Shown here in pieces: positions 1 through 50,015 of a stretch of DNA of 50,015 nucleotides (positions are counted from its first letter, which is position 1; the number at the start of each line of letters is the position of its first letter). This DNA comes from a virus. Taxonomy: Duplodnaviria; Heunggongvirae; Uroviricota; Caudoviricetes. The position numbers and the translations under genes are program-made. The stretch is taken from IMG/VR virus record IMGVR_UViG_2917403263_000001. One strand, 5' to 3'. The notes under the pieces are model-generated. The model did no database searches. It saw nothing but the letters and a program-made list of their open reading frames with translations, and was not told the origin of the DNA.

Positions 1-585
1 CTATTTTTCTTGCCCTAACTGATTGCTAATCGTCATTCCTCTGATTGAACATAAATCCTTCAGATTATTCAGTTCTTCCTTCATCTCCCGCTGGCGCTGA
101 TAAATCTCGTCATTGCGCTCAATCTGCGCCTGAGCCATTGCTGCTGCCAGTTCTTCCAGTTCCGGCATCGACAGTCTCACCTGTTGATTATCAGCATCAC
201 CCCACGCCATAACGCCCCGTGCTGTGTTGGATTTCGATGCCATCACCACCGGAGACAGGCGGGCTATTGAGTCAGGACCAGCGTTCCAGGTGCGGCCGTT
301 CCATTCAAATGTGAACGGCTTCGCCTCCTGTTCTGCACGCCATGCTTCGATTTCCTTTTTTTTGGCATCCTTTGCCGCTGCGATAAATTCTGACGTGACT
401 GTAAACGAGGCTATTGCACCCCATTTGCCGCTTTGCAGCTCATGCCAGACGCACTTGCCCGTCGTCGCTGTATCTTCTGCCGTGGCTGTGTAGGGGATGG
501 GGGCATCCATCCCTTCAAATAAAACCTCGCAGTCAATAGCACCAGATTCGGTATAGCAGGGATTGATGATTTCTTTGATTTCCAT
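1..585 (-). CDS. tfa: Tail fiber assembly protein (Tfa)
   Basis: 194-aa ORF directly downstream of the side tail fiber gene with 1-nt stop/start overlap; sequence resembles lambdoid Tfa proteins (recalled). Confidence 0.75.
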   Translation of the reverse strand: MEIKEIINPCYTESGAIDCEVLFEGMDAPIPYTATAEDTATTGKCVWHELQSGKWGAIASFTVTSEFIAAAKDAKKKEIEAWRAEQEAKPFTFEWNGRTWNAGPDSIARLSPVVMASKSNTARGVMAWGDADNQQVRLSMPELEELAAAMAQAQIERNDEIYQRQREMKEELNNLKDLCSIRGMTISNQLGQEK

Positions 586-2656
586 TATGCAATCCTCATG
601 AATAGCGCCACAAACGCCTGATCGCTGTATGTCAGCATGGTGCCTGACATTGCAATGTACGAGCCAGGAAGCGAATGTGAGTTGCAGCCGACAACGTAGA
701 ATCTGGGGGTTGATGCATAAGTGCCTGAAGGATTAAATGGACACTCAATTCCAACTGGCCCCAGACGCGAACCCGGATAAGACTGTCTTCTGACAACCTT
801 TATATTTTTATCACCGTCAGCAGTTCCCTGATATGCAGCTAATATCAGGCCTCCAATATCGGGGTCACCCCAGTCGTAATTGACGTATGAAAATAGCATG
901 TTACGAACTTTGTTTTTTGTCATGCTAATCTCTTCCCATCCACCTAACGAGCCACCGAAAGTGGAACCGATGAGAACATCCCTATTTATCCCGTAAAAAA
1001 TCAGCAACTTCTTTACTCTGCGAGCATTGCTATAACCATCCCGATTTGTGTTAATCCACAAAACATCGATGATCCCCTCAAAATTCACACTGGATATCGG
1101 CGTGTATCCATTGAATTTATGGTAGTACCTGCCAGGAAGAGCATAATTAGCCCAATTTTCCAGTGCAGAGGCACTATTAAAACTTACACGCCCGTAATAT
1201 TCGTCTTCATACGTGTACCCAAACCCATAAGCGCCAGCCAACGCCAAGACCGAATTCATCATCGCCTTATCGGGCCATGTAAAGGGATTACTGATGACTG
1301 TTTTATTAGCAACCCCCCTGATTTGCAGATTCTCCTGTGCTTTAGCCAGTGCTGACGAGCCAGCATCAACGATTTCCTGAAGGTTGTTTTTTATCTTGAG
1401 ATACCCGCCATCGAGGATATCGTCAATTTCGCCTTTGGCATTCTCTGCTGATTCTGCAGCTGTCGCTGCATCCTGCGCATACTTTTGAGACTGCTGCTCA
1501 TGCAGCTCTGCTTTCTGTGCGTGTTTTTGGGCGTTCTGTTCGCTCAGTGCCGCATTGTCAGAACTTGTTTTTTGAATCTGTGGCACTGAATTCAGAATCC
1601 TTCGCTGCCTGCCGTGCTTGCTTTACCGCGTCCGCGACATCCTGCACACCCTGCTGCACCTGCCCGGCGTTCTGCTCAACTTCTGAAGCCAGTTGTTCAA
1701 CATATTGCTTATCTTTGGCAGCCGCGTCAGCGTTCTGTTGCACGTTATTCGCCAGCGTCTGGCAGTCTTCCTTTATCTTCTGTGCATCGGCTGCGTGTTG
1801 CCCTGCCAGTCGCTCGCTTTCCGCTGCTGCATCCTGACTATTTTTCGCCGCCGTTTCGCTGGTTTTGGCATTCGTTTCACTGGTTTTTGCTGCCGTCTGG
1901 CTGGACTTTGCGTTGGTTTTCGCTCGTCTTTGCTGCTTTCTGGCTGTTAGCCGCAGCAGTTTCTGATCCAGCTGCCGATGTCGCAGAACCGGCTGCCGCG
2001 CTCTCGCTTGCTTCCGCTGCATCCTGGCTGTTTTTCGCCGCAGTTTCACTGGCTTTGGCATTCGTTTCGCTGTCTTTTGCTGCCGTCTGGCTCGACTTTG
2101 CTGCTGTCTCGCTATTTTTTGCGTTGGTTTCCGATTTTTTGGCTGCTGTCGCGAAGTTTTCCGATGCAGTCTGTGAGGCCGCTGCTGCCTGTGCGCTGTT
2201 AGCTGCATCCGTTTCTGAGCTTTTCGCCGCGTCCTTCGATGATGCCGCTGCAGTTTCGGATTTCTTTGCCTCTGCTGCGCTCTGAGAGGCGGCTTCAGCG
2301 TTACGCGCAGCTTCGTCCACCATTGCCTCAAAACGGCGCAATGCCTCCGGCATAACATCATCTTCCGTCATGGCACCGAGAAAATCGTTCAGTGTTCCCG
2401 GCCTGGAACCGTCATAGACGGTAATGGTTCCGGCATGTGAAGGCGGAAAACCTTCAACCAGCAGGATAACGCTGTACTGACCATACTCAACATCCATGCT
2501 ATAACGCCCGGCTTCATCCGGATTTTCTGAGGCCACCGTATTCACCACGACTGTGGTGCTGTTACGCTTTGCCTTCAGTTGAATAGTGCAGTTCTGTATT
2601 GGTTTTCCCGCACCATCTTTCAGTACACCTGAGATTTTTACTGCTGCCATATCCAC
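585..2656 (-). CDS. stf: Side tail fiber protein (Stf-like), reading frame broken twice as assembled
   Basis: N-terminus MDMAAVKISGVLKDGAGKPIQNCTIQLKA matches lambda Stf; coding continues in three successive frames (ORFs 1877-2656, 1558-2361, 585-1586) with SETAAK-type repeats; breaks at T4 run ~1912 and T6 run 1568-1573. Confidence 0.75.
1825..2115. repeat. Tandem ~190-bp direct repeat inside stf (2 diverged copies)
   Basis: 1825-1925 and 2018-2115 are near-identical (gctgcatcctg..ttttcgccgc..gtttc..ctgg.tttggcattcgtttc); encodes repeated SETNAK/SETAAK blocks. Confidence 0.8.
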
Positions 2657-2660
2657 TCCA

Positions 2661-2688
2661 CAAAAAAGCCCGCCTGAACCGGCGGGCT
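2661..2688 (-). terminator. Rho-independent terminator downstream of lom
   Basis: agcccgcc-tgaacc-ggcgggct hairpin followed by U-run on the minus strand. Confidence 0.6.
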
Positions 2689-2714
2689 GTCATAACACTG
2701 TGTTACCCGGCTAA

Positions 2715-3314
2715 TCAGAATTTATAACCGACACCAACGATGAAACCGTCAGTGCGCCAGTCGCCACTGCCGGAACCTTCATAAGCAAGGTCAATGGCCA
2801 CGGATTCGGTCGGGTTAAACTGCACGCCAGCCCCCCACGCCAGAGACGTGTTGCTGTGGCGACCGCCATCACTTCCGGTCAGCACATCGTGCGTTTTCCC
2901 CTTGTTGTCAGCTACGCGGAGATAATCCCCGGAAAACGTCGAAACACGGCTGTAAGCCACACCCGCCATCGCATAAGCACTGAACCATTCATTCACGCGC
3001 ACAGATGGTCCCGCCATCATGCTGAACCAGCGGTTATGCGCTGAATCTTCATGCCAGCGGGTATCGCTGTAACGGGTAATCTGGCGATTCTTGTCTCCTG
3101 CATAGCTGAATGACGTCACCAACCCCAGCGTGTCCGTAAATTCATAACGGTATTTCACGTTAATGCCCTTCAGGTCATCGTTGCCGGGCATATCAGTATG
3201 GGACTGAAGATACCCGCCGCTTAGTGTGGACTGATGCTCTACTGCACTCGCTGGCGTACCAGCGGCGACCAGCCAGACTACTGCAGACAGAATAACAGCA
3301 CATAATTTACGCAT
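2715..3314 (-). CDS. lom: Lom outer membrane protein (Ail/Lom family)
   Basis: 199 aa with signal peptide and C-terminal GVGYKF beta-barrel terminus; sits between J and stf as in lambda. Confidence 0.85.
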
Positions 3315-3338
3315 AATTACCTCTCGCTTTTCTGCAAT

Positions 3339-3362
3339 AAAAAAGGCGCCATTTCTGGCGCC
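3339..3362 (-). terminator. Putative terminator downstream of J
   Basis: Self-complementary ggcgcc-atttct-ggcgcc hairpin followed by U6 on the minus strand. Confidence 0.45.
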
Positions 3363-3383
3363 CGTATTGGGGTTATAAATATT

Positions 3384-6300
3384 TCAACGAATACTGATAC
3401 CGGAAGCAGCTTTTTTGGTCACAATCACCGTACAGTCTGTGATGTTACCTGCGCCCCGATTGCCTTTCTGGAAAATCTTAAACTCCAGAGTGACGCTACC
3501 ACCACCACTCGGCATATCAATAACCGCGCTGTAACTACCGGGAATGGCTCCTTTAGTTTCTCTGGATGCGATTAATACGCCGTTTTTACGAACTTCAAAA
3601 CCATAACCCGTGTATCGCGTACCTCCCGGTTTATTACCGCTCCCCGGATCGTCATACGCCACACCGTTAAAAATAATGGGCGGAATAATGATTTGGCGGT
3701 CAAAGTTATGATCATCGTAAATGGTGACTGTAACCGTCCCGCCTGGTGTTTCCGTGTTACCCCACGTACCAGCCTGTTTCGGGAATGATTTGGATACAGT
3801 TTTAACGAAGTCACCTCTGACCTGGTTCGCCTCCAGCATGCCCTTAATCGTACAGTTTTCATTTACCGTGACGTTGTTGAGCGTCCCGGAGTTCGCATTC
3901 ACGTTACCGCTGATATCAGCATTTCTCGCCGTCAGCCGCCCGTCCGGTGTCAGGGAAAATGCCGGAGGATTACCACCGCTGGTAATGGTGGGAGCCGTCA
4001 GATATTTCAGAAACACTTCGTTCATGAATATCTGGTTGCCCTGCGCCACAAACATCGGCGTTTCATTCCCGTTTGCCGGGTCAATAAACGCGATACGGTT
4101 AGCGGCAACCAGGAACTGGCTCAGTTTGCCTTCCTCCGTATCCTCCATGCTGAGGCCAAGCCCCGCGACATAATGCCTGCCGTCTTCGGTCTGCTCAATT
4201 TTGACGCCCCACATGGCATTCCATTTATCGTTGGCGTCTTTCCACTCTTTCGAAAACTCCTCCAGTTTGCTGGCGTTATCCTCCGTCAGCTCGACTTTTT
4301 CCAGCAGCTCTTTACCGAGATGGGATTCGGTTATCTGGCCTTTGAAAAAATCCAGGTAACCTTCGGCATCATCGCTCGCCCGACCGACAGCCTCCACGAA
4401 TGCCGATTTGCCAACGGTGTTCACACTGCGGATATAAAAATAATAATCATGGCCCGGTTTGATATTGATACTGGCAGCTATCCAGTACAGCGCCGTGCCA
4501 AGATAGCGGGCTGCGGTTTCAACCTGCCTGATATCCGCAATCCGCTTTTCCGAGAACCAGAACTCAAACTGTACCGTCGGGTCATAAACGGCAAGATGCG
4601 GCGTTGCGGTTATCTGAAAATAGCCCGGCGTCAGCTCAATCCGCGACGGTGCTGCCGGTGCGGCAATCCGGAACGATACCGACGCCGGATCGCCCTGCTG
4701 CCCCCACGCATTTACTGCCCGGACTGTCAGCGTGTAACGCCCCAGCGCCAGTTGCCTGAAGCGGTATGTGGTTTCCGTCGTCCGGGCTGTGCTGACAAGC
4801 CGCTCACTGCCGTCATCCGCTGCCACGGTCAAGCGAAGCGTAAAGCTCACCCCCTTCACCACCTTCGGCGTGTCCCATCGCGCCAGTACCTGATATTCCC
4901 CGCTGTCTGCGGTGACTTCGGCAGTCAGGTGCTGCACCGCTGGCGGCGTGACACCATTCACCGTGCCACTCTGGTCGCCGTCAAAGTGCGCCCCGTTATC
5001 CACGATGGCCTCTTTTTCCGGCACATGCTGCACGGCGGTGATGGCATACGTGCCGTCGTCGTTCTCACGGATACTCACACAGCGGAACAGGCGCTGACGC
5101 AGCGTCGGCAGCTTCAGCCCCCACACGCTGTATTCGGCAACGCCGTCAGGAACACGGCTCACTTTTACCTTCACGCCGTCGGTGACGGACTGGACCTCCA
5201 CGCTGACCGGATTCCCCTGCCCGTCAACCAGGCTTATCAGCGTGGTGCCGGAGGATGGCAGCGTGATTTCACGGTCGAGCGTCAGCGTCCGGGTCTGGCT
5301 GTTCACCGCCAGCACACGCCCACCGATGCTGATCCCCGCATAGTCATCATCACAGATTTCAATGACATCGCCCGGTACATGGCGAAGCCCTTCTGCGCCC
5401 ACGCTGAAGTCCACGGTCTGCGTTTCCAGCAGCTCCGTTTTAATCAGCCACAGCCCGGCGCGGTGTGCCTGCCCCCGGCTGGTACAGCCAAAGGCATCCA
5501 TCTTCGTGACGTTACGACCGTAACGGAGAATGGCCTGCGTGTCCTCCACAAGCTCTGTCGCCGTCTCCCAGCCGTTATCCGGGTCAATCCAGTTCACCTC
5601 AACGGCATTATGGCGGTCCTTCAGGGCGCTGAAGCTGTAGCGGAACGGCGCGCCATCATCCGGCATCACCACATTACTGTGGTTATAGGTCCACACCTTA
5701 TCCGACGGTCGGTCCTGCACGAACGTCAGCGTCTGCCCGTTCCATACCGGCATACAGCGCATCGCCGAGCAGAAATCACTGAGAACATCCCACGCCTTAC
5801 GCTGTGTGGTCAGGTAAGCGTTACAGGTGATGCGCGGCTCCGTGCCACCAAAGCCGTCCGACACTGACTGGTCGCAATACTGGCCGATGACATACAACGC
5901 CCATTTATCCACATCCGCCGCACCAAGACGTTTCCCCATGCCGTAGCGCGGGTGGGTCAGCATATCCCACAGACACCAGGCCATATTGTCGCTGTATGCT
6001 GGCTTAAACGTTCCGTCCCAGATACCGCTGTATTGCCGCGTCTGCGGGTTATAGTTCGACGGCACCTGCAGAATGCGCCCGCGAAGATGATAATTACGGC
6101 TCACCTGCTGGCTGCCGAACTGCTCCGAATCCACCTGCACGCCGACCAGTGCCGTGTTCGGGTAGCACTGTTTCACATCGATGATTTCGGTGTATGACGA
6201 CCAGAGCGTTTTGTTCTGCAGCTGGTCTGTGGTGCTGTCCGGCGTCATCCTGCGCATCCGGATATTGAACGGGCGCGGCGGCAGGTTATCCACCACCACC

Positions 6301-6797
6301 GAGGCCAGATACTGCGAGGTGGTTTTGCCCTTAATGGTGATGTCTTTTTCCGTCACCCAGCCACCGTTACGCTGTATCTGAACCAGCAGGCGGACTTCCG
6401 ACGGATTCCGGTCCCCCTTTGAAGTGGTTTCCACCAGTGCCTGCACACCGAAGGTAAAGCGCAGACGGTCGATATTTGCAGACGTGATAGTCCGGGTGAT
6501 CGGCGTGTCGTATTTCACTTCCGTACCCAGTACCGTCTCGGAACCTGATGATTCAAATCCCTCCGGCGGTGACTGCTCCTGCTCACCTGCCCGGAACACC
6601 ACCGTGACACCGGAGATGTTGGTATTTCCCTCACTGTCCAGCACTGGCGTACTGTTCAGTAGCACGCTTTTTAATCCATCCACCGGACCTTCAATCGGCC
6701 CTTCGCTGATGGCATCGATCACACTCAGCAACTGCGTTGATTTGAGATTATCCTTCGCTTCGCGCGGGGTATGCCCCTTACTGCTGCCTTTACCCAT
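3384..6797 (-). CDS. J: Host specificity / tail tip protein J
   Basis: 1137 aa; N-terminus [24 protein letters not shown] as in lambda J; follows I. Confidence 0.9.
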
Positions 6798-6857
6798 TTC
6801 TCAGACCCCATAAACGACAAAACCGCCCGGAGGCGGTTTCACATAAAACATTTTGCA

Positions 6858-7505
6858 TCAGCGACCAATCACCACAACCTGACCACCATCCCCTTCATCT
6901 GCTGTGCTGATCTCCTGAGATACCACACGTGACCCCACGCGCATTTCACCGTACAGAACAGGCAGAACATTACCCTGGGCAACCATGTTATCCAGAGAGG
7001 AGAAATAGGTGTTCTGCTTACCGTTATCCGTTGTCTGTGTGCGGGGAGTTCTGGGTTTAGGAGCCAGCATCTGGGCCACACCGCCAAGGATCATACTGGC
7101 CCCCGCACTATACATTCCTGTAATTGCTGTCGCTCCCAGCCAACCTGCGGGGTTCCACCACGCCACCGCAATCAGCGCCGCCCCCAGCACCGCCTGAAAC
7201 ACGCCGCCACTTTTGGCACCGGTCAGACGCGGTACGATGTGGATGACGGCACCATTCGCCAGCGGCTCATTAAGACGGGCTGATAATTCCGTTTCACCTG
7301 CATCGCGCCCGGCAATGCGTACCTGATACCAGCCGTCGCTCAGTTTCTGACGAAACGCAGGGAGCTGCGTGGCCAGCGCCCGGATGGCTTCGGCTCCCGT
7401 TTTCACACGAAGGTCGATGCGGCGGCCAAATCGTTGCAAATCCCCGTAAAGGCAGATGCGTGCCATGCCCGGTGACGCCAGAGGGAGTGTGTGCGTCGCT
7501 GCCAT
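6858..7505 (-). CDS. I: Tail assembly protein I
   Basis: 215 aa starting MAATHTLPLASPGMARICLYGDL, ending GDGGQVVVIGR; lambda I-like; start may be an internal ATG because the ORF overlaps K. Confidence 0.8.
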   Translation of the reverse strand: MAATHTLPLASPGMARICLYGDLQRFGRRIDLRVKTGAEAIRALATQLPAFRQKLSDGWYQVRIAGRDAGETELSARLNEPLANGAVIHIVPRLTGAKSGGVFQAVLGAALIAVAWWNPAGWLGATAITGMYSAGASMILGGVAQMLAPKPRTPRTQTTDNGKQNTYFSSLDNMVAQGNVLPVLYGEMRVGSRVVSQEISTADEGDGGQVVVIGR

Positions 7506-8146
7506 TTGTCGGTATACCTCTCTCGTTTGCTCAGTTGTTCAGGAATATGGTGCAACAGCTCGCCGTCGCCGCAGTAAATGGCGGCATGATTCGGCACCGA
7601 TGAACCAAAACAGCACAGCAGCACATCGCCCGGCTGCGCCGATGACAACGGCACCTGATACAGCCCTGTGGCCTCCAGATTATCCAGATAGAGATTCTGA
7701 CCGTGACGCCACCAGTCATCCCCGCGATGAAAATCCGGCATCTCAATCCCCGCCAGATGATAAGCATCCCGGAACAGTGTGTAACAGTCCGTCACCCCGT
7801 GCTCAAAGCGCCGCCCGGTGAGATGCGGCACACAGCGGAACTTATGAATCGCCCCCCGGCAGACCAGCCACCACGGCAAATCACTCTGCACCTGCAGCCG
7901 CCGGTCGGCCTCACTCAGCCAGGGCAGACCACCGGGATGACTGTGGACCAGCGCCACAATCTCACCCTGCATCTCTGCCTGCAGCCAGTCCTCCGGAGCC
8001 ATCCGGAAATAATCCTCCGGCTCACCGGAAATATTCACGCAGGGAAAATATCTTTCCCCTTCCGGCGTTCTCACCACGAAGCCGCACGACTCCGCTGGCG
8101 CACATCGCCGGGCGTGCGCCAGAATCGCTGATTCTGTCTCTGTCAT
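7403..8146 (-). CDS. K: Tail assembly protein K (MPN/JAB plus NlpC/P60-like)
   Basis: Start set at MTETESAILAHARRC (ATG 8144-8146); HSHPGG JAB-type motif; lambda K-like. Confidence 0.85.
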   Translation of the reverse strand: MTETESAILAHARRCAPAESCGFVVRTPEGERYFPCVNISGEPEDYFRMAPEDWLQAEMQGEIVALVHSHPGGLPWLSEADRRLQVQSDLPWWLVCRGAIHKFRCVPHLTGRRFEHGVTDCYTLFRDAYHLAGIEMPDFHRGDDWWRHGQNLYLDNLEATGLYQVPLSSAQPGDVLLCCFGSSVPNHAAIYCGDGELLHHIPEQLSKRERYTDKWQRRTHSLWRHRAWHASAFTGICNDLAAASTFV

Positions 8147-8150
8147 GGGA

Positions 8151-8849
8151 TTACTGCGAAAGTTTGTTAATGGAAAGGAAGCCGCCAAAGTTGCCGACGT
8201 TATTGCGAAACTTACAGCCGCTCAGGCATTTGCTGCATTTATCCTTCGTGATATCGGACGTCGGCTGGTCATATTCATCCGCGACAGCCGGACCGTTATA
8301 ACCGCACTCATCACCGCGATAGCTCCAGGTGCAGGTGTTGGCCAGCATGATACGCCCCGGAAAAACAGCACCATCCGTTTCCGTCGGTGTGGACAACACA
8401 AAGGAGGCACTGACCGCACTCAGTTCGCTGCACTGCTCGATGCGCCAGCGGCTGATCACCTCCTGCTCCGGATCGGCGTCGCTGTTTCCGTTGACGAAGT
8501 TCACCGCATCCAGAAAACGGGCGTAAACCTTACGCCTGACCACCGTTCCGCCGACCAGACTCTGTAAATCCTCCACCATCCCGGTGACCATGCCGTGCAG
8601 GTTAGATACTTTCAGTGTTGGCCTTGCACTGGCACCTTTGCCGTTCATCTCAAATCCACCCCCCTGAATGGGATAGGCCTGATACTGCCGACTCTGCCAG
8701 GTGACAGACTCACCTTTTTCATTCTGCTCATTGCAGAAAAAGTAGCGATCCCCGCCTACCTCTGTCAGGTCGATTTCCCAGAGCACCACGCTGGCCGACT
8801 GCTCCGCCCGAATGCATTCATTCAGTGTTTCCTGTTGTATGTCCTGCAT
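8151..8849 (-). CDS. L: Minor tail protein L
   Basis: 232 aa; lambda L-like with C-terminal Cys cluster; start ATG overlaps the M stop (ATGA). Confidence 0.9.
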   Translation of the reverse strand: MQDIQQETLNECIRAEQSASVVLWEIDLTEVGGDRYFFCNEQNEKGESVTWQSRQYQAYPIQGGGFEMNGKGASARPTLKVSNLHGMVTGMVEDLQSLVGGTVVRRKVYARFLDAVNFVNGNSDADPEQEVISRWRIEQCSELSAVSASFVLSTPTETDGAVFPGRIMLANTCTWSYRGDECGYNGPAVADEYDQPTSDITKDKCSKCLSGCKFRNNVGNFGGFLSINKLSQ

Positions 8850-9188
8850 CAGATCACCACTTCGTCAAACTGACACGAAAAATCGGTATAGGTGATATGT
8901 TCTGTCGCTGACCACGTTCGACACACCACTCTGATTTTTCTGTTAATACCCGGCGGGCGCCAAAAAAAAAGATTTATAGCCTTCATGCCGGGCTAAAAAT
9001 TTTTCAAATGAATCACGTTCATTCGCCTCAACTTTGAAATCACAGGTGAAAACGCGCAGAGAATGATTAAGTCCATTTGGACTTCGTTGCTCATAACCAT
9101 CGCCAAATCTTACAGTTTTTATCGATGGTTTATTTTCTGTTTTCATTCCATCCTCTGGTAACCAGTGAAATTCTTCCGTATTAGCCAC
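8849..9188 (-). CDS. M: Minor tail protein M, frame broken at an A9/T9 homopolymer
   Basis: 81-aa ORF (8943-9188) matches the N-terminal two-thirds of lambda M (VRFGDGY..); the C-terminal ~30 codons ([24 protein letters not shown]) continue in another frame after the homopolymer at 8962-8970; one base fewer restores a single ~111-aa ORF. Confidence 0.75.
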
Positions 9189-12100
9189 TTAACATTCCCC
9201 CATCACGTCGCATATTTAACAGAGTGCCCTGTACCCGCTGATCAACCATCCCCATAAGTGCTTTTATTGCCTGAGGGCCAATCTCTCCATTCTGGCCGTC
9301 ATTTTGAATAGTGATTTGGTATACAGGGGCATAGGTAATATCTCCGCCTCCATTACCACTTTTACTATTAATAGCTCTGACACCAAGAGAACCATCGGAA
9401 GTTCGTGTTAATGGCATAATGGCTTCCGGTCCAGCCTCACCAAAAACACCCGCCCCTTTTGCAAAAGCAAAAAATTGCGGGGAATCATAAATACCGTTCG
9501 AATACGTGCTCAATGATGGAGACTCATAAACACCGCCCTTTGCATTCGGAATAAATTTACTAATAGCACTCCCGATAGTTCCTAAAATCCCCCCAGAAGA
9601 ACTGTTACTAATGCTGTCGAAAATCCCAGTAATTGAAGCCTTTAATGCTATTCGACTAAGATCCGAAATCACGGAAGTAGCGAAAGAACGAAAATTTGCC
9701 TTGCCTGTCGTGACAAAATCACCCAGCGCATCGGTCATCCCATCAAACATCAGAGTCGTGGTTGATTTTATCTGCTCACTGATATACTTAGTGTCATCCA
9801 GCCAGTTATTAAATCCCTGGGAGGCACCACTAACCCAGTCTCCTGCCTGAATATCGAGCTGCTCGTTTTTCTGTCTGACAATTTCTTTTTCTCGTTCCAG
9901 AGAGTCATTCAGAGCCTGCATTTTCTCCTGAAAAACATGATCTGACATTCCACGGGATTTATCTGCATAGTCACGTTCAAGTTGCAGACGCTGGTTGTTA
10001 TATTCACGTTCAATCCGCAGTAATTCCTGCTGGCGTTGCTGATTTTTATCGCCAAGCCCATAACCAGCAATCTGAATATCATACCCCTGCTGACGATTAT
10101 CAATCGAAGCCTGCAATGAATCACGCCATGCGGCTATTTCGGCGGATTCCTTGATTAGCCTGTTATTTTTTTCAATCGCAACATTTTTCTCCATCAACGC
10201 GCTTATTTCTTCCCGGTGTAAGAGAAGCGATTTCTGATCCTGGGTTAATTTCGATAACGGTCGTGACTCCAGGTCGGCAATCTGCTGACGCCACTTAACC
10301 AGTTCCTGTTCAGAGGAACTTAATTTAACGGTCAATTCAGCTTGTGAACTTAGTAACGCATTCTGTTGATTCAGATGATCAATCATTCGTTGAGCAGCAT
10401 CATCCGAATAACCTTTCGCCTTTGGTTGCTTTGGATCTTTATAACGCTCATTTATTTGAGCGACAAGCTTATTATATTCTTCCTTTGAATACTGATTCTT
10501 TAGCTTTTCCAGTTTTGCAAGTTCACTGGCTCTCTGCTGCTCCCGAGTCTGATATTGTTTTGAAAAGGCATCTGCTTTCTGTCTGAGTTCAATTCCTTCC
10601 TGTTGTCGCTTGTTGTAATTGTTTATTGATGAATTTAGTACGTTCTGAGCAATTTTTTCTGATTGAAGTGCGCCTAATTGCTGTTTTAATTGAGCCAGCC
10701 TTTTATTTTGAGCACCACCATCTCCAATACCACCTACCCCGAAAACGCCTGGCCTGGTATTTTTTTCTATTTCATCAATTTGACGGAGAACATCTGAGAT
10801 TTTTTGATCAAGAGATACCTCACGCCCAACAGCCAACATGGAATCCCATGCCCATTTTGCGGAGTCAGCGACGGCTTTCCATGCAGTCTCAAGATAACCA
10901 AGATTTTCTTTAATCTGGTTGGTGCGCTGGATCATTGAGGATGAGTATGCTTCCGTCGCAATGCGAGCAGCCTCCTGCTGGTTCCCTTCATCCTGCAGCG
11001 CCTTAATCTGGTTATAAGTCGCCAGTGTCAGAAAATGGTACTGATCATTAAGTTTTGATATGGAACTGACAGGATCCTTTGCAATTTCATTGAAGTCATT
11101 AACAAGTTGATCGGTTGCTATTCCAGTTAATTCACTCGTTTTTACTATCGCAGCCGTCACTTGCTCCAGCGAATTGCTCGCTACCTTTCCCGAACGCACA
11201 AGCTGGTTTAATACTGCCGCCGCAGCGCCAGTTGTCGAATCAGCTGCATCCCCGGCACGTTGAGCTATATCGGCCAATTGCCCGCTGGTTGTCCCCAACT
11301 GATTTCCGGTAAGAATAAGAGATTTATTAAATTCTTCCTGCTCCTGAGAGCCTTTATAGTAAGCTAGCCCCAGGACACCAACGGCTGCTGCGGCCAGGGT
11401 AAAAGGATTAATTAATCCCAGCACATAAGAACCAACACCTTTGATCGCCGGGCCAATACCACCGAACATATCTTTTAGCTGACCGCCCTGCTGCATTAAC
11501 ACCATAAACGGTGACTGGCCTGTGGACAATCCAACCACAATATCAGTCATTTGTGCAGGCAACATGCGCATAGCAAAAGCCGTTTGTTTTGCCGACATTC
11601 CGGTTTTGCTTAGCTGCGATTGAGTAGCCTCAAGCTCACTCCGCATAGCACGGAGTTTTCCTGAAAGCTCCTCATACATTTCAGGAGAAAGCATCCCCTT
11701 GGCTTTTGCTTCGCTGAGTTGCTTTTGCTGCTCTGTCAGGCGGTTAAAAGCTGTTCCGACAGGATCGAGTTGAGCAATCAGACGTTGCAAAGCAGTAACT
11801 TGTTCATCATGCGCTTTTGCTGCTTCTCGTTCTGCCTGAGCCTCTCCTGTTAGCTCTCGCCGCGTTTCCTGTATTTTTCGGCTGTAATTATCAAACTGAG
11901 AGCCATTTATTTGCCCGGATGAAAGTGCAGCATTAAGTTCATCCTGCTGTTGTTCAAGATTTCTTAGCGCCGCTGCCAGAGGGTCGATCTTGTCCAGCAT
12001 TCTTTGAAAGGCCTGAACCTGCGCTTCCTGCTGGGCGGCAGCAAGTTTTCCGGCCTTCTCGGCTTCTCTCTGCGCTTGCGCAACCCCACTCAATTCCTCT

Positions 12101-12483: not shown

Positions 12484-13041
12484 TCAGAAACGGTAACCGA
12501 TACCAGCCATCCAGGTACCGACTTTCACATCACCCAACTTTGAGTATTCATAAGATGCATCAATTACCAGGTTTGGCATTGGGTTAATCTGGAAACCAGC
12601 ACCATACGCTGCAGAGGTTTTATCTGAAGATGCAGAAAATTCACCATCCCAGACATGAGCTTTTCCATATCCAAGACCAACCAGAGCATATGCACTCAGA
12701 TAGTCATTAAAACGATAGGACGGTCCAGCTGTCACGGAGAAATAATCAAGATCTCCAGATGCTAATTTGGTGTATTGTGGTTTTCCTTGAAGATCGGGAA
12801 CATAGCCATAAGCATCTTTGTTGTAATTGGTGTGCACAAAAGAACCTACCACACCCCAGTCGTTATTCAGTTCATAACGGTATTTAATATTAAAACCGTT
12901 CAGATCCTCGCTGGCACTATCAACTTTTGCATGGCTACGAGCATAACCAGCAGAAATAGTACTCTGCAGTAATTCAGCGTTTGCAATGCCAGTTGCAAAC
13001 AAAGTTGAAACTATAATGGTAGCCAACACTGCTTTCTTCAT
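12484..13041 (-). CDS. Ail/Lom/PagC-family outer membrane beta-barrel protein (moron)
   Basis: 185 aa, signal peptide MKKAVLATIIVSTLFATGIANA, C-terminal GIGYRF; AT-rich upstream region 13042-13210; own terminator; inserted between the chaperone and tape measure genes. Confidence 0.8.
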   Translation of the reverse strand: MKKAVLATIIVSTLFATGIANAELLQSTISAGYARSHAKVDSASEDLNGFNIKYRYELNNDWGVVGSFVHTNYNKDAYGYVPDLQGKPQYTKLASGDLDYFSVTAGPSYRFNDYLSAYALVGLGYGKAHVWDGEFSASSDKTSAAYGAGFQINPMPNLVIDASYEYSKLGDVKVGTWMAGIGYRF

Positions 13042-13211: not shown

Positions 13212-13490
13212 TTATTCATCAAAATCGTCAGTTCGTGAAAAATAATTATCATCGAGTGCGAAAATCACGGCTTCGAATTCATCACCGTCTATTAATATCG
13301 GGTGTGCTTTTAAATAGTCGTGTATGTCAGATATTGACAAAGGTAGCGGAATCCCGGGCATGCCTGCATAACGCCTGGAACGAGACATTACTGAATACGC
13401 ATACAATAACTCACGGACAACGGGGTCTATTTCTGGCTCCGGGAGGCGGCGGCAACCTGAGTTTTTCTCGCTTCCATCTTGCCTTTTCAC
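13212..13490 (-). CDS. Possible T-frame extension of the tail assembly chaperone (or separate small ORF)
   Basis: Frame is open from 13540 down to the stop at 13212 and lies +1/-2 relative to the G-like ORF; it overlaps the G stop region. Confidence 0.35.
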   Translation of the reverse strand: MKRQDGSEKNSGCRRLPEPEIDPVVRELLYAYSVMSRSRRYAGMPGIPLPLSISDIHDYLKAHPILIDGDEFEAVIFALDDNYFSRTDDFDE

Positions 13491-13529
13491 CCTTTTCTCC
13501 CCCGAACTCCGATAACCACCGCTGGGCGG

Positions 13530-13991
13530 CTATGGCTTTTTTATCGTATCCTGCTTCTGCTGCTCTTTACCTTGGGCGATGCTGGCTGCTTCTGCAAGGA
13601 TCTGCCAGTACAACTCCGGATTCTGCTTAAGCAGCGCGATCCCTCGTTCTGGCGTATATTCCAGTGCAACCTCAACACCATCAACCAGTTCACCAACCCC
13701 TTTCCAGTCTTTCAGCAGATAACGAGCGGCATTATCAATGAGTAAATCATCAACAGAATCCACCTCGGAAACCTTTGCAATATCAAACTCCTTCGTTCCG
13801 ACGTGCAAGCTGGCATCCATTTTCTCAATGTGGCGACGGATTAATGCATTACGGGAGCGATACTGATCGTTATCGCTGCTTGCCACCAACAGTTTTAACC
13901 CGTCTACAGGTTTTAAGTCCTTCATTGGGGTAAACCAGCGTTCTCCACCGATGATAATTTTCTGATTAAGAATAAACATCCATAACCTCAT
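13530..13991 (-). CDS. Putative tail assembly chaperone (G-like)
   Basis: 153 aa, acidic; position between major tail protein and tape measure; ORF ends right after a slippery heptamer A_AAA_AAG. Confidence 0.55.
   Translation of the reverse strand: MRLWMFILNQKIIIGGERWFTPMKDLKPVDGLKLLVASSDNDQYRSRNALIRRHIEKMDASLHVGTKEFDIAKVSEVDSVDDLLIDNAARYLLKDWKGVGELVDGVEVALEYTPERGIALLKQNPELYWQILAEAASIAQGKEQQKQDTIKKP
13536..13542 (-). promoter_or_regulatory. Candidate ribosomal slippery heptamer A_AAA_AAG in the 0 frame of the G-like gene
   Basis: Coding strand reads ACG ATA AAA AAG CCA TAG; heptamer is in register with the ORF. Confidence 0.45.
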
Positions 13992-18942: not shown

Positions 18943-20058
18943 TTAAATCCCTGCTTTTCTGAATGCCTGTGCATCACGCTCTCGGAGTTGCTTCAGCGTC
19001 AGCCACTCGCCTTTATCGGTGTAAAATTCATCTGGCGACATACCACCATCCCGAATCAGCTTTGCCCGGGTTTCCCCCACAATCTGTTTTTGTCTGGTGT
19101 AAGGCTGGCGCAAAAACCATTCCCTGTAGGTTGTATCTCCGGCCACCACGCCATCCATGCTGGCCCGCTCAGCCGGGGAAATATCACGAACATCAATACC
19201 CAGTTCCTTCGCTGATTTCAGAATGAACGTTTCCGTTGAGCGACAGCAGAAATGAATTTTCCCCGGCCCCTGCAAATAAGGCACGCTGTGACCTACAGGT
19301 TTATTATCCAGCGTATATTTGAGGCGATCCCTGATTCGACATTGTGGCGTAGTACGATTATCAAGCGTTGATAACCATTGCTTACCCTTAATCAAATCAT
19401 TATTCGCGCTGGCAAAACTCTCACGGGCAGTAGCAGCAAGATGTCCAACCGCTGTTTTTGCAATGCTGGCCGCATTAGCCCGACTCATCTGCAATGCACC
19501 GTCCTGAAATCCCTTACTGACATGTCCCCGAATTTTTCTTGCGATCTGCTCATTGGTATCCCCCAACAAAAAACCCTGACGCACCGTATTTGTTATGCGT
19601 CTGAGCCGATCCGCCTCAAGATCTGAGGCCCACTCACTGAGCAGTCGTCCCTGGAATGGTCGCGCCATTGCAGCGGCATAAAGTGCATCAGGTGAGATAC
19701 CAACCAGAGGGTGAACATCAGCAACAAAATCAGGTAGCAGAGAATCAAACAGACTTAACTGATAACCAGCCTCATAAACTGCCAGCTCGTTCAGCTCTCC
19801 GGAGAGACTGGTAAACATACTGTTAATCGCAGCGCGGTTAACCTCTCTGACACTCGCCAGAAGTGACTCTAGGCGCGTAACGGTAAAACTACCTGGATCG
19901 AGGCTGTCCAGAGCCACCAGCAGGCGAGCTGTAAGCTCCGCATCACTGTCATTCAGTGTTTTCACCATTCTGGCAGCCACACCAGTGCTATAGCGGGATA
20001 CCCAGACTGCATGAGCAATTGATTCATCACGCAGCCGTTCATTCACGGTTTGCATCAT
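18943..20058 (-). CDS. Head morphogenesis protein (SPP1 gp7 / Mu F-like)
   Basis: 371-aa ORF immediately downstream of the portal gene; family assignment recalled. Confidence 0.65.
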   Translation of the reverse strand: MMQTVNERLRDESIAHAVWVSRYSTGVAARMVKTLNDSDAELTARLLVALDSLDPGSFTVTRLESLLASVREVNRAAINSMFTSLSGELNELAVYEAGYQLSLFDSLLPDFVADVHPLVGISPDALYAAAMARPFQGRLLSEWASDLEADRLRRITNTVRQGFLLGDTNEQIARKIRGHVSKGFQDGALQMSRANAASIAKTAVGHLAATARESFASANNDLIKGKQWLSTLDNRTTPQCRIRDRLKYTLDNKPVGHSVPYLQGPGKIHFCCRSTETFILKSAKELGIDVRDISPAERASMDGVVAGDTTYREWFLRQPYTRQKQIVGETRAKLIRDGGMSPDEFYTDKGEWLTLKQLRERDAQAFRKAGI

Positions 20059-29129: not shown

Positions 29130-29214
29130 ATAAACATGCCTCTTGAAAGAGGCAGATACTAATCCTTCTTCATGGACCTTGTCCCGCGGCTTTAATCCGA
29201 CAGCCGCGTTTTTT
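29130..29214 (+). ncRNA. Candidate small structured RNA, copy B
   Basis: Hairpins gcctct-tgaa-agaggc, ggac-ctt-gtcc, cgcggc-tttaatccgac-gccgcg followed by U6; same architecture and loop as copy A. Confidence 0.35.
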
Positions 29215-29364: not shown

Positions 29365-29389
29365 AAAAAAAACCGCCTGTTAAGGCGGT
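29365..29389 (-). terminator. Minus-strand intrinsic terminator (module B)
   Basis: accgcc-tgttaa-ggcggt hairpin followed by U8 on the minus strand. Confidence 0.6.
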
Positions 29390-29749: not shown

Positions 29750-29824
<75 letters not shown>

Positions 29825-29827
29825 ATA

Positions 29828-29903
<76 letters not shown>

Positions 29904-30133
29904 ATTATTTCCTCAGACGGGAATATATCGCAACCATTCCCCCTGAAGAACTGCGGCAAATAATACGTTTAAATAATAAAACTGCAATACACCATAACGT
30001 CAAGTTTTGTAAAGTTATTTTTAGGTTTCTATTTTGTCAACTTTTTATATAAATTTAAAAAACAGTCATAAATGTACGCAAAATATATTTTATACAACAA
30101 TTTAATCGCGCGTTTTTTTAATCAGGCTTCAGA

Positions 30134-30232: not shown

Positions 30233-30778
30233 TCACTTTGCAATAGTTTTTTTTTGTGCCGTGAACATTGGTTTATAAAGCATAAATTCAGCAATCATCA
30301 GCCATTGATCGATACGACGTCGACAGGTAATTAATGTCCAGTCAGGATGATTTTCATTTAACTGCTCTGCCATTTTCAGTTTGCTCATTCCCCGCCCTTC
30401 ATATCGTTGTCGGAGGATGCTAATTAATCCCGGATACTCGACCAGCACTTCGCTAATTACCCGATCAATACATAACGCCTCGGCATCAGTACAATGAGAC
30501 AACCAGCTTTTCTGCTTACCGTCGAGCATTTCCCGCAAAAATGCCTCCAGTTCCGTCTTATCAATTCCCGCTTTTTTCATCCTGCGCAGAGCTTCATTGA
30601 TGGCTGTTTTCGTCAATTTTTTGGATGCCAGCAACTGGTTAAACATATTCCCCGTCTTACCGCCGCCAATATACGACCAGCGCCCCCACATGCGCAGTTT
30701 TCCCTGAATCCAGACACTTTCCAGCGTGGTGAGACGAAGGTGTTCCCCGCTTTTTCCTGTATTTGTTGGGTAAATCAT
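30233..30778 (-). CDS. Q: Late antiterminator Q
   Basis: Start MIYPTNTGKSGEHL (SD aggaagg); ~181 aa; position directly upstream of a short terminated leader, tRNAs and lysis genes; Q-family assignment recalled. Confidence 0.65.
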   Translation of the reverse strand: MIYPTNTGKSGEHLRLTTLESVWIQGKLRMWGRWSYIGGGKTGNMFNQLLASKKLTKTAINEALRRMKKAGIDKTELEAFLREMLDGKQKSWLSHCTDAEALCIDRVISEVLVEYPGLISILRQRYEGRGMSKLKMAEQLNENHPDWTLITCRRRIDQWLMIAEFMLYKPMFTAQKKTIAK

Positions 30779-31068
30779 AAATAACCTTCCTTTCTCCAGA
30801 TTTCTTGTGTGCGAAAAACACCTTCTGCATGCATCAGGCGTAATTCTTCTTTGGTGTAATCGCTGGTTTTTACTCTCCCGTCGATTAAATCGTGGCATGA
30901 GCTACAGGCAATTGCAGCCTGCATATCGTGTGGCTTTGTCGCTGTTCCACACGTCCCCGCCAGTCTGTAATGCGCCAGCACGGAAGTTTCGGGATTGTGA
31001 TTGCAGTACCCAGGAATTCTGACCTGACACATCTGGCCCCGCGCCGCTTTACGTAAATCTGCCATCAC
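30775..31068 (-). CDS. ybcO: YbcO-like (DUF1364) Cys-rich putative nuclease
   Basis: 97 aa MMADLRKAARGQMCQVRIPGYCNHNPETSVLAHYRL..CSSCHD; coupled to Q (4-nt overlap). Confidence 0.65.
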   Translation of the reverse strand: MMADLRKAARGQMCQVRIPGYCNHNPETSVLAHYRLAGTCGTATKPHDMQAAIACSSCHDLIDGRVKTSDYTKEELRLMHAEGVFRTQEIWRKEGYL

Positions 31069-32263: not shown

Positions 32264-33385
32264 CTAGTGAATTTTGCCTCTAAGAGTTCGGTAAGATTGT
32301 AGTGAAACAACATCACCACTTCCTGGCAGTTCATGAACCGCAGGAAGATCATCTCCAACTAACTCATAAAAAATGTCCACTTCTATATCCATTTCATCAG
32401 CTATACGCTGTGGGTCGTATCCTAACTCTTCAAATAAAAACGATAAAGCCCGACGGAATAACTCAGGACGCTCATGAGGGATTAGATAATCTTCTTTTTC
32501 ATCAATAGCTTCCCCTTTCCGTTTCAACCCCATAAATGCAGTTCTGTACTGCTCATCAGTCAAAAGTCCTAATTGATGAGCCCTGTAAACAATGGCAGCC
32601 TTACTTACTTTCCATGTCAACTTAAATTGGCTTAGTCCCTGCCAATTTATCCTCCCCCCCACAGGTCTTGGAAAATATTTCGCCATCGACGTTCTGGGAA
32701 GCAACAGAGCAGAGGCAAAACGGTTTGCCTGGGATTCAGTTAATCTATCACCAGTAGAAATTCCTTCATGAAGAATCAAATGGGCAACCTCATGAGCAAT
32801 ATCAAAGCGTTGCCTACAAGGTGAATTTTTAGCTGTATTTCGAACAATAAAAGGCCTTCGTAGAGGAACAGACAGTGCATCTACTTCATCCGAAACGGAG
32901 TCAAATGAAGTAACAAACGCCCCAAGTTTCTCGGCCAGGCGAGTCATATTTTCAATTGGGCCAAAGCCTAAGCCCCACTCAATACGACATTTTTCTGCCG
33001 CTCGCTCGATATCTTCTTGTGTATGGACACGAAATTCAGGAAATCGAACAGGTGACAAATTAAGATTATCTTCAAATACATCAATAAAACGACGATAAAA
33101 CTCAGCCTTAGCGAGTGTTGATAGCTTCGTTGACATCCTTGTCGAGGCGCGTTTACGAAAATGTACAATCTCTTCATTAACAGGAGAATGTTCCTGCCCT
33201 TCGAAAAAGGCGGGCTTCACGCGCAAAACCTCGGCTAATTTATTTATAAGCTCTGGGGATGGAGTAGCTGAACCAGACTCCAGTCGCTGTACATACTGGC
33301 GTGTTTTTTCAACCTTCTCAGCAACCTGCTCCAGAGATAGCTCGTGATACAGACGAGCAAGTCTTAAATTAGTACCGTTAAACAC
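32264..33385 (-). CDS. XRE-family HTH fused to ImmA/IrrE-type zinc metallopeptidase (COG2856-like)
   Basis: N-terminal HTH LSLEQVAEKVEKTRQYVQRLESG; HEXXH motif HEVAHLILHE; 373 aa. Confidence 0.8.
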   Translation of the reverse strand: MFNGTNLRLARLYHELSLEQVAEKVEKTRQYVQRLESGSATPSPELINKLAEVLRVKPAFFEGQEHSPVNEEIVHFRKRASTRMSTKLSTLAKAEFYRRFIDVFEDNLNLSPVRFPEFRVHTQEDIERAAEKCRIEWGLGFGPIENMTRLAEKLGAFVTSFDSVSDEVDALSVPLRRPFIVRNTAKNSPCRQRFDIAHEVAHLILHEGISTGDRLTESQANRFASALLLPRTSMAKYFPRPVGGRINWQGLSQFKLTWKVSKAAIVYRAHQLGLLTDEQYRTAFMGLKRKGEAIDEKEDYLIPHERPELFRRALSFLFEELGYDPQRIADEMDIEVDIFYELVGDDLPAVHELPGSGDVVSLQSYRTLRGKIH

Positions 33386-33395
33386 ATTTCACCCA

Positions 33396-34037
33396 CTATT
33401 TGCTATTTTGTTTCTTTTCCTTCTCAGTCTTAGACGCACTGATAGGTTCTAGTTCGATAGGTACCGGTGCTGGAGGTACATCATCGACAGAGTTCAGCAT
33501 AACAACACGGTCCGCACCATATGTCCAAGTTGACACGATCTCACCAAACACGTTATAGCCATTAAAAATGACTTTACCACCCTCGCCTTCAAATTCAGGC
33601 TTTTCAACCACAAAGCGATGCATAGTTGGAGTGGTCTCCTCTGACTCAAAGAGTCGATCAGCATCGTTTCTTTTGAAAAAACCGCGTTTCTTGGGATTAT
33701 CTGCGTCATCAGTAAAGAAACGAATAGGGACATTCCCAATTGAAAACGTAAGATCCATGCCAGGATTAAGTAGTCTTAACCAGTCATATGTCTTTCGTAC
33801 GCACATTTGTAGCAACGCCTGCCGCTGACGCCCAAATGTACAACCACCACGAGTGTAATTATCATCATAGGGCGATGACAATAACTCATGAGTAATATCC
33901 TGTATCCTGAGCAACTCCTCAGCTATTATGGTTAAACGATCCTCTGTTAACTCAGGAAAGAACTCCCAAGGGAATGGATGGTTCTGCATAGACACATCTC
34001 CGTCTAATCCGTGCAAAAAACGACTTTTGTCAACCAA
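33396..34037 (-). CDS. Hypothetical protein, first gene of the two-gene cassette
   Basis: 213-aa ORF (possible internal start MQNHPFPW); 10-nt gap to the HTH-peptidase gene; AT-rich; no family recognised. Confidence 0.5.
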   Translation of the reverse strand: MVDKSRFLHGLDGDVSMQNHPFPWEFFPELTEDRLTIIAEELLRIQDITHELLSSPYDDNYTRGGCTFGRQRQALLQMCVRKTYDWLRLLNPGMDLTFSIGNVPIRFFTDDADNPKKRGFFKRNDADRLFESEETTPTMHRFVVEKPEFEGEGGKVIFNGYNVFGEIVSTWTYGADRVVMLNSVDDVPPAPVPIELEPISASKTEKEKKQNSK

Positions 34038-40483: not shown

Positions 40484-40685
40484 GAATCACCTTCCCAGGT
40501 CGTTTTGCCTTACGATATTCGTCATAAACTTTGGGGTCGTACTGAAGCTCCCCGCCAGATGCTTTTTGTAGGCGCATCGCGCGACCTTCGGGAACCAGTT
40601 CACCCCATGCAGCAACACTTGCCAGTTTCACTCCTGCGGCATTGGCAAGCTTTGTTTTGCTGCCAAAAAAAGTAAATTGCATCAA
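40467..40685 (-). CDS. Cro-like / YdaS-like small DNA-binding regulator
   Basis: 72 aa, divergent from the repressor gene across the operator region; GSKTKLANAAGVKLASVAAWG HTH-like. Confidence 0.5.
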   Translation of the reverse strand: MMQFTFFGSKTKLANAAGVKLASVAAWGELVPEGRAMRLQKASGGELQYDPKVYDEYRKAKRPGKVIHENQA

Positions 40686-41481: not shown

Positions 41482-41491
41482 GGTCAGCAAA

Positions 41492-43363: not shown

Positions 43364-43437
43364 TTAACTGACTATTCGAAAATGAATTTATGCCAGCAAT
43401 GGCAGGGATTCGCTCAACCTTAATTAAGGAGAAAAAC

Positions 43438-43707
43438 ATGATTACCAATTATGAAGTCACTGTTGTAACTACCGATGACATTGTTCACGAGGTTAATCTG
43501 GAAGGAAAGCGTATTGGCTACGTGATTAAAACAGGAAATAAAGAAACCCCATTCACTGTGGTTGATATCGACGGTCCATCAGGCAACGTAAAAACACTTG
43601 ATGAAGGTGTCACAAAAATGTGCCTGGTTCACATCGGAAAGAATCTGCCCGCAGAAAAAAAAAGCCGGATTTCTGGCAACTCTGATTGCAATGAAATTAA
43701 ACGGTGA
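43438..43707 (+). CDS. racC: RacC-like protein
   Basis: MITNYEVTVVTTDDIVHEVNLEGKRIGYVIK; A9 run at 43655-43663 near the 3-prime end makes the last ~17 codons length-sensitive. Confidence 0.55.
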   Translation: MITNYEVTVVTTDDIVHEVNLEGKRIGYVIKTGNKETPFTVVDIDGPSGNVKTLDEGVTKMCLVHIGKNLPAEKKSRISGNSDCNEIKR

Positions 43708-46959: not shown

Positions 46960-46970
46960 GGAAGGACACA

Positions 46971-48281: not shown

Positions 48282-48462
48282 AATTACCGCCACTATTGAA
48301 AAGGAAGGTGGCACTCCTACTAACTGGACAAGGTACTCAAAAACAAAATTAACCAAATCAGAATGCGAAAAAATGCTCTCAGGTAAAAAAGAAGCAGGCG
48401 TTTCCAGAGAGCAGAAAGTAAAACTGATAAATTTTAATTGCGAGAAAATTCAGTCCTCGTGA
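48276..48462 (+). CDS. ydaC: YdaC-like small protein
   Basis: MYKITATIEKEGGTPTNWTRYSK..; SD ggagg; overlaps ralR end. Confidence 0.55.
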
Positions 48463-48561
48463 GTTGCATTGTATTCAAATTAAAACTTCATAGCTGATTA
48501 TTAATAATCAACATCGGGCGTCAATTTCGGTCTAACATTGGCGCCTGCCAGAGGTGATGCG

Positions 48562-48777
48562 ATGGCACAAGTAATCTTTAATGAAGAGTGGATGGTTGAA
48601 TACGGCCTGATGCTTCGCACTGGTCTGGGGGCCAGACAAATTGAAGCATACCGCCAGAACTGTTGGGTGGAAGGCTTCCACTTCAAACGAGTATCTCCTT
48701 TAGGGAAGCCAGACAGTAAGCGAGGGATTATCTGGTACAACTATCCAAAGATAAATCAGTTTATCAAAGACTCATGA
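48562..48777 (+). CDS. xis: Excisionase
   Basis: [35 protein letters not shown]..; immediately upstream of int with 1-nt spacing. Confidence 0.8.
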
Positions 48778-48778
48778 T

Positions 48779-50015
48779 ATGTCTAAATTACCAACAGGTG
48801 TCGAGATTCGAGGTAAATACATTCGCATCTGGTTCATGTTTCGAGGAAAACGATGTCGGGAAACATTGAAAGGCTGGGAGGTTACTAACAGTAACATTAA
48901 AAAGGCCGGGAATTTAAGAGCATTGATAGTTCATGAAATCAACTCCGGTGAATTTGAGTATTTAAGACGTTTTCCCCAGTCCAGCACTGGGGCAAAAATG
49001 GTGACAACGAGGGTCATAAAAACGTTCGGGGAGCTTTGTGATATCTGGACAAAAATTAAAGAGACAGAGTTAACAACAAACACAATGAAGAAAACGAAAT
49101 CACAATTAAAAACAACTCAGGATAATAATTTGTGAGAGTACACATATATCACATATTCGTTATAGCGATATCTTAAACTACCGGAATGAACTGCTGCATG
49201 GAGAAACGCTTTACCTGGATAATCCAAGATCCAACAAAAAAGGAAGAACCGTGCGCACAGTTGATAACTATATCGCCCTGCTCTGTTCGTTGTTACGTTT
49301 TGCGTATCAGTCGGGATTTATATCAACCAAACCATTTGAAGGAGTAAAAAAATTACAGCGAAACAGAATAAAGCCTGATCCGTTATCTAAAACAGAATTC
49401 AATGCATTAATGGAAAGTGAAAAAGGACAGAGCCAGAACTTGTGGAAATTTGCCGTTTACTCCGGGCTTCGTCACGGGGAACTGGCTGCTCTGGCGTGGG
49501 AGGATGTGGATTTCGAGAAGGGAATTGTGAATGTCAGAAGAAACCTGACGATACTTGATATGTTCGGTCCCCCAAAAACAAATGCGGGGATCCGGACGGT
49601 AACACTACTACAGCCTGCTCTTGAAGCACTGAAGGAGCAATACAAACTGACCGGGCATCATCGCAAAAGCGAAATCACTTTTTATCATCGGGAGTACGGC
49701 AGAACCGAAAAGCAAAAACTGCATTTTGTTTTCATGCCCAGGATGTGTAACGGAAAACAGAAACCTTATTACTCGGTAAGCAGTTTGGGTGCGAGATGGA
49801 ATGCAGCTGTAAAACGTGCTGGTATTCGCCGCCGTAATCCGTACCATACGCGACATACTTTTGCCTGCTGGCTGTTGACGGCAGGAGCGAACCCGGCATT
49901 TATAGCCAGCCAGATGGGGCATGAAACTGCGCAGATGGTGTATGAAATTTACGGTATGTGGATTGATGACATGAACGACGAACAGGTAGCTATGTTGAAT
50001 GCGCGGTTATCGTAG
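48779..50015 (+). CDS. intR: Tyrosine integrase (IntR-like), reading frame broken as assembled
   Basis: N-terminal 118-aa ORF (MSKLPTGVEIRGKYIRIWFMFRGKRCRETLKGW) and C-terminal ORF from ~49109 (catalytic R..HxxR..Y region NPYHTRHTFACWLL..GHETAQMVYEIY) lie in different frames; shift near aaaaacaactcagg at 49098-49111. Confidence 0.8.

Follow-up and report, generated by a model that had tools for sequence, protein, structure and literature searches.

The Rac prophage of Escherichia coli K-12 lies at the ttcA locus, where it has lost most of its structural genes and is cryptic and genuinely defective. A technical system is also close to the sequence described below: Ion Torrent sequencing, which on E. 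coli data shows an overcall rate of 1.03%, an undercall rate of 0.95%, and insertion, deletion and mismatch rates of 0.437%, 0.084% and 0.008%, respectively (PMC3711422). Here we analyzed the 50,015-nucleotide IMG/VR record IMGVR_UViG_2917403263_000001, the whole of which is termed the window. It comprises a lambdoid prophage bounded by a DUF4376 gene (1-585, minus strand), which occupies the place of a tail fibre assembly gene, and by the stop codon of a tyrosine integrase gene at 50015. A first-pass annotation, made from the letters alone, had reported that the reading frame breaks twice in the tail fibre gene stf and also in M, the portal gene and int, that the tail of racC is length-sensitive, and that assembly errors explain these breaks better than pseudogenisation. 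Listing and translation of the open reading frames (ORFs) of the window recovered every one of these breaks. A second assembly of the source strain indicates that the broken genes are very probably single-base errors of an Ion Torrent assembly, an ordinary artefact, and that the prophage is not decaying.

Source of the window and a second assembly of the strain

Positions 1-11586 of the window are 100% identical to PDID01000001.1 (GCA_004745145.1) of Escherichia sp. E3659, a member of cryptic clade II. An exact-sequence look-up of the ORF fragments returned the same strain: the C-terminal stf fragment of 333 amino acids is TGB88605.1 of E3659, encoded on a contig of 466,245 bp, and an uninterrupted tail fibre of 687 amino acids, also from E3659 but on another contig of 412,234 bp, falls within the 90% cluster of TGB88605.1. 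The look-up of recT returned only E. coli copies, as the RecT protein is too widespread to be informative; therefore, recE, ParB and the tail-terminator protein served as queries in its place. The E3659 draft PDID00000000 was produced by single-end Ion Torrent sequencing with reads of 35-400 nt at 40x coverage, and was assembled with MIRA and SPAdes (PMC6639607). E3659 was also sequenced independently, and the resulting second assembly, VATQ01000006.1 (GCA_005781135.1), spans the entire prophage. Four VATQ01 segments (L051, L068, L054 and L076) tile positions 1-50015 with consistent overlaps, and were compared with the window base by base, assembly against assembly, together with PDID01000001.1 (L053) and the Logan assemblies of the runs SRR8835201 (L052) and SRR6148330 (L055).

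Over the 50,015 bases, the window and VATQ01 differ by no substitutions and at 14 sites of insertion or deletion (indel), which consist of 12 one-base insertions and two deletions in the window (Table 1). Eight of these sites are coding and six are non-coding. None of the 14 lengths found in the window recurs in the independently sequenced VATQ01, in which all of the named genes are intact, in agreement with the first-pass preference for assembly errors. Both stf insertions are likewise missing from the Logan assembly of SRR8835201, the run that belongs to the VATQ01 assembly. A comparison with related sequences, which had been suggested as a check, thus supports an artefact.

In VATQ01, as in the window once the extra bases are removed, the genes stf, M, portal, racC and int encode 687, 112, 468, 91 and 411 amino acids, respectively. 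The stf product without both extra bases is identical to WP_240730970.1 (P0017). Close E. coli matches are lacking for the 3' half of stf, and a distant search led to the counterpart in UMNF18, with an identity of 76%. Without the extra base at 1565/1566, the window reads ...DSKNSSDNAALSEQ..., and the UMNF18 counterpart reads ...DSKNSADNAALSEQ...; the UMNF18 junction ...SATDSKNSADNAALSEQ... is thus reproduced by the window upon removal of a single base, which fixes the junction at the protein level. Scans for the junction pattern gave no match in IMG/VR or the GTDB species representatives. In racC, the nine-base run exchanges the last 16 residues (AGFLATLIAMKLNGEI) for 14 others (SRISGNSDCNEIKR). 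A similar exchange is seen in the Q-like DUF1133 gene (30233-30784, minus strand), the product of which ends with ...AQKKTIAK in the window versus ...AQKKLLQSEQ in VATQ01. The portal gene differs even between assemblies of what are presumably the same reads, as SRR6148330 is presumably the Ion Torrent run behind PDID01. The Logan assembly of this run lacks the extra T at 20474/5, and instead has four rather than five A residues at 20547-20551, which is 76 bases away; two assemblers presumably drew different portal indels from one read set. As this assembly and the GenBank one disagree, the indels are not constant features of those reads.

A search of the nearest complete E. coli genomes and a phage collection found relatives at just 91-96% identity. 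They share the gene order of the window and have a single unbroken tail fibre gene, M (113 amino acids), portal (468 amino acids) and intR (411 amino acids), and the alignment gaps correspond to one extra window base per break. As arbiters these relatives were rejected, since at ~95% identity they are too distant to tell an error from a mutation. Position 42542, which appeared as a further insertion against the E. coli references, was also discarded; it is common to both E3659 assemblies and is therefore a real divergence.

The sequence context of the breaks is more varied than the first-pass description, which placed them mostly at A/T homopolymers. The inserted base is indeed A or T at every site in the named genes, but the context is only loosely homopolymeric. 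Among the six frame-breaking sites of these genes, only that in M is a long homopolymer, one is a T3 run read as T4, and at three a single base is doubled. The junction in M does coincide with the A9 run that had been singled out, and this run is A8 in VATQ01, in E. coli AST215 and in 42 of 45 IMG/VR proviruses. The two stf breaks had been assigned to T4 and T6 runs; the former assignment is borne out by the T3-to-T4 change, whereas the second break lies one base outside the T6 run. Similarly, the int break adjoins the A5 run to which it had been ascribed, but the extra base is one base past this run. Several of the breaks are thus single-base duplications, some of them beside a run of the same base, which fits phasing errors and not strict errors of homopolymer length. 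The claim that five genes are broken and the rest of the phage is intact applies to those five genes, but it overlooks the -1 ORF of the tail assembly chaperone gene and the C-terminus of the Q-like protein, in addition to the six non-coding sites.

Table 1. Reading-frame breaks, indel sites relative to VATQ01 and the chaperone frameshift region in the window
Feature	Position	Strand	Comparison or source
stf, three overlapping ORFs	1877-2656, 1558-2361, 585-1586	-	ORF listing
M, 81-aa ORF ending just past the A9 run 8962-8970	8943-9188	-	ORF listing
portal (DUF4055), two pieces	20433-21446 (337 aa), 20039-20452 (137 aa)	-	ORF listing
int, two pieces	48779-49135 (118 aa), 49251-50015 (254 aa)	+	ORF listing
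racC, stop shortly after the A9 run 43655-43663	43390-43707	+	ORF listing
+1, T1>T2 (coding strand CAG>CAAG), second stf break, one base from the T6 run 1568-1573	1565-1566	-	Not in L051, L052
+1, T3>T4, first stf break	1917-1920	-	Not in L051, L052, E. coli AST215
A8>A9 in M, product of 81 instead of 112 aa	8962-8970	-	A8 in VATQ01 and AST215
+G, G1>G2, breaks the -1-frame T-like chaperone ORF	13445-13446	-	Not in VATQ01 (L068)
+1, T1>T2, portal (DUF4055) break	20474-20475	-	Not in VATQ01 (L054, L068) or L055
T8>T9, non-coding, upstream of holin gene	28285-28293		VATQ01 T8; relative L002 C+T7 (8 pyrimidines)
T8>T6, 2-base deletion, non-coding	29209-29214		VATQ01 T8
A9>A8, 1-base deletion, non-coding	29365-29372		VATQ01 A9
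A5>A6, non-coding	30057-30062		VATQ01 A5
T6>T7, non-coding	30113-30119		VATQ01 T6
T8>T9, 3' end of the Q-like DUF1133 gene	30247-30255	-	VATQ01 T8
A2>A3, two bases past the A7 run 40665-40671, between divergent cro-like and cI-like genes	40674-40676		VATQ01 A2
A8>A9 in racC	43655-43663	+	A8 in VATQ01, E. coli ETEC1706 and 0-4
+1, A1>A2, int break, one base past the A5 run 49108-49112	49114-49115	+	Not in VATQ01, ETEC1706, 0-4
A AAA AAG slippery site in the 3' end of the YdaY-like chaperone gene (13530-13991)	13536-13542	-	Kept in 10/10 relatives
Chaperone region including the overlapping -1 ORF	13212-13991	-	Relatives L066-L075

Error pattern, platform and rival explanations

The frequency of discordance rises steeply with run length: six of 10 runs of at least eight bases differ between the two assemblies, compared with two of 294 runs of 5-7 bases and six of ~35,900 runs of at most four bases. 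Three of the six short-run insertions sit within 3 nt of a run of at least five identical bases of the same kind (the T6 run beside 1565/6, the A7 run beside 40674-6 and the A5 run beside 49114/5), against a background of 1.2% (binomial P = 3e-5). Same-base runs adjoining short insertions are the expected outcome of phasing through carry-forward and incomplete extension (CAFIE). In the 9.4 kb of host chromosome beside the prophage, there is one intergenic A7-to-A8 difference and no substitution; therefore, the error process is not specific to the prophage. Taken together, the window shares with known flow-based (Ion Torrent or 454) artefacts its flow-platform source, differences that are exclusively indels, insertions far exceeding deletions, a discordance that climbs with run length, and the phasing context of half of its short insertions, with no difference of substance. 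The rates published for Ion Torrent (PMC3711422) fit this pattern of indels alone, in which insertions outnumber deletions.

Based on these observations, we propose that the window represents an intact Rac-family lambdoid prophage of E3659, copied from the ~40x single-end Ion Torrent draft PDID01000001.1. As each nucleotide flow reads a whole homopolymer, its length would be over- or under-called, the more so the longer the run; templates that fall out of phase by carry-forward or incomplete extension would raise the signal of an adjacent flow of that nucleotide and create spurious single-base insertions. Fourteen such errors probably survived in the consensus, where they would split stf (twice), M, portal, int and the -1 part of the chaperone gene, and rewrite the C-termini of racC and the Q-like protein, with no biological mechanism at work. 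At the coding sites, the intact ORFs and the relatives strongly support VATQ01 as the correct version, and at the six non-coding runs the diverged relatives weakly suggest the same.

Genuine decay would require a defective prophage in the PDID01 culture, with real frameshifts in stf, M, portal, int and others, comparable to the cryptic Rac of K-12. Rac-family prophages are often degraded, frameshifts are annotated in relatives (in the terminase small subunit of ETEC1706 and in sieB of 0-4), and a 254-residue C-terminal int fragment identical to that of the window occurs on 27 other contigs. However, a decaying element is hard to reconcile with two data sets of one strain that differ over 50 kb by 14 indels and no substitutions. 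The lesions are of one kind, indels of one or two bases, in a gene order and with gene lengths otherwise as in the intact relatives, and nonsense mutations, insertion sequence elements and larger deletions are all absent. Moreover, the indels follow homopolymer length, six of the 14 are non-coding, the host flank has a similar indel, the portal indel is contradicted by a separate assembly of the presumed same reads, and the platform is known for exactly these errors; we thus consider decay very improbable. Also at odds with the data is a recoding explanation, in which the listed breaks would be programmed ribosomal frameshifts or another form of recoding that yields full-length proteins. Lambdoid phages do use programmed frameshifting, and the chaperone gene of this very prophage has a conserved A AAA AAG heptamer with an overlapping -1 ORF; but none of the listed breaks is conserved, stf, M, portal and int are single ORFs in the relatives and VATQ01, and restoration of the frame would require +1 shifts at unrelated sequences that have no motif in common, which leaves recoding a negligible probability.

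Under a slippage explanation, the length of some long A/T tracts, above all of A8 in M, would vary within or between cultures in a manner resembling phase variation, with PDID01 having caught an off-length state. In the 45 IMG/VR proviruses with identical flanks (L006-L050), the M tract is A8 in 42, A7 in two and A9 in one. The exact 81-residue M is encoded by 14 contigs of unrelated runs; ten of them were retrieved (L077-L086), and all ten contain the 9-mer. Such recurrence of A9 elsewhere may stem from real slippage or from a long run being miscalled repeatedly. Runs of at least eight bases are classic miscall sites on several platforms, so that recurrence is expected from error alone. In E3659, the difference in M is accompanied by 13 other indels of artefact type, and slippage would account for the long-run sites at most, leaving the single-base duplications over. 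As an explanation for the window, slippage is accordingly highly unlikely. A narrower version appears improbable: here, the A8 tract of M, and perhaps that of racC, would be a real slippage hot spot, with "off" alleles (A7 or A9) in subpopulations of Rac-family prophages, and some of the recurrent 81-residue M would be biological instead of miscalled.

Several points weigh against attributing the breaks to Ion Torrent error. The insertions at 1917-1920, 13445/6 and 20474/5 have no same-base run of at least five bases within 3 nt, which makes a flow-space cause less obvious. These insertions correspond to the non-CAFIE class of the Ion Torrent profile (PMC3711422), which amounts to 43% of Ion Torrent insertions, the other 57% being due to phasing (PMC3711422). 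The nine-base M tract in 14 unrelated contigs and in one of the 45 proviruses makes real slippage possible there. The link between SRR6148330 and PDID01 was drawn from the Logan assembly of the former, which agrees with the window over 11 kb without a single mismatch and contributes one of only four contigs of the collection that encode the exact ParB protein of the window. The platform of SRR8835201 and VATQ01 was not found in the literature, so that the accuracy of VATQ01 at the six non-coding runs is assumed, and at non-coding homopolymers the relatives are too diverged to tell which assembly is correct.

A candidate programmed frameshift in the tail assembly chaperone gene

The 3' end of the YdaY-like chaperone gene carries the slippery heptamer A AAA AAG and is overlapped by a -1 ORF (KKAIAAQRWLSEFGG...DDFDE). 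All ten relatives examined (L066-L075) retain the heptamer as well as the ORF, and amino-acid changes in the -1 ORF of the more distant relatives are conservative. The spurious G at 13445/6 interrupts the -1 ORF of the window, such that the frame ends with ...LRLPPPPGARNRPRCP and a stop codon, whereas it is longer and open in VATQ01 and all ten relatives. The longer frame reads ...LRLPPLPEPEIDPVV... in eight of them and ...LRLPPIPEPEIDPVL... in L067 and L070.

The arrangement resembles the G/GT system of phage lambda, in that a gene at the chaperone position, flanked by the tail tube and tape measure genes, carries A AAA AAG together with an overlapping -1 ORF that is conserved. By analogy with this architecture, the heptamer is a candidate site of programmed -1 frameshifting. 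The likeness is one of architecture alone, as the fused chaperone product had no match in Pfam. This site, which lies outside the breaks of the first-pass annotation, is a candidate for the sole genuine, biological frame change in the window.

Other features of the prophage and comparison with K-12 Rac

A gene with a ParB/Srx N-terminal domain (24941-25729, minus strand) is followed by a TAGT/GREB1-related glycosyltransferase-like gene (24016-24966, minus strand). The pair is located directly upstream of the small terminase gene, is conserved in the E. coli relatives and may constitute a DNA-modification module. Two genes on the minus strand encode Ail/Lom-family outer-membrane proteins (2715-3314 and 12484-13041); one follows J as in lambda, and the other is an insertion that separates the tape measure gene from the chaperone gene, an interval of only ~150 bp in AST215. 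The region 32264-34037 (minus strand) contains a gene of 373 amino acids that combines HTH_3 and Peptidase_M78 (ImmA/IrrE-like) domains, and an adjacent gene of ~200 amino acids that gave no domain match; a hok-type toxin gene lies next to them. The Q-like gene and the holins are separated by a long, A/T-rich non-coding stretch, which harbours tRNA-Gly(tcc) and tRNA-Thr(tgt) at 29750-29903 (minus strand) and holds five of the 14 runs regarded as miscalled.

The ORF boundaries and pseudogene calls of the uncorrected window are not reliable. Without correction the prophage would be scored as defective, though E3659 appears to carry a complete prophage of the Rac family, and 15 sister Ion Torrent assemblies of the project (PDHW-PDIL) are probably affected likewise. 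Downstream work should take VATQ01 or apply the 14 corrections. More generally, a second assembly of the same strain can decide between artefact and decay without recourse to reads.

The host genes ttcA and dbpA flank the int side of the prophage, and Usp, porin and pyruvate:ferredoxin oxidoreductase genes flank the opposite side; therefore, the prophage sits at the Rac locus. The arrangement is that of K-12 Rac, with int beside ttcA and genes of the uspF, ompN and pfo type at the far end. The two elements also have in common the recE-recT-ralR-xisR-intR module, in addition to racC, kil, sieB and ydaT-type genes. They differ greatly in completeness: in contrast to the cryptic K-12 Rac, the E3659 element with its errors removed would be a complete prophage of ~50 kb, with intact genes for terminase, portal, capsid, tail, lysis, replication and integration.

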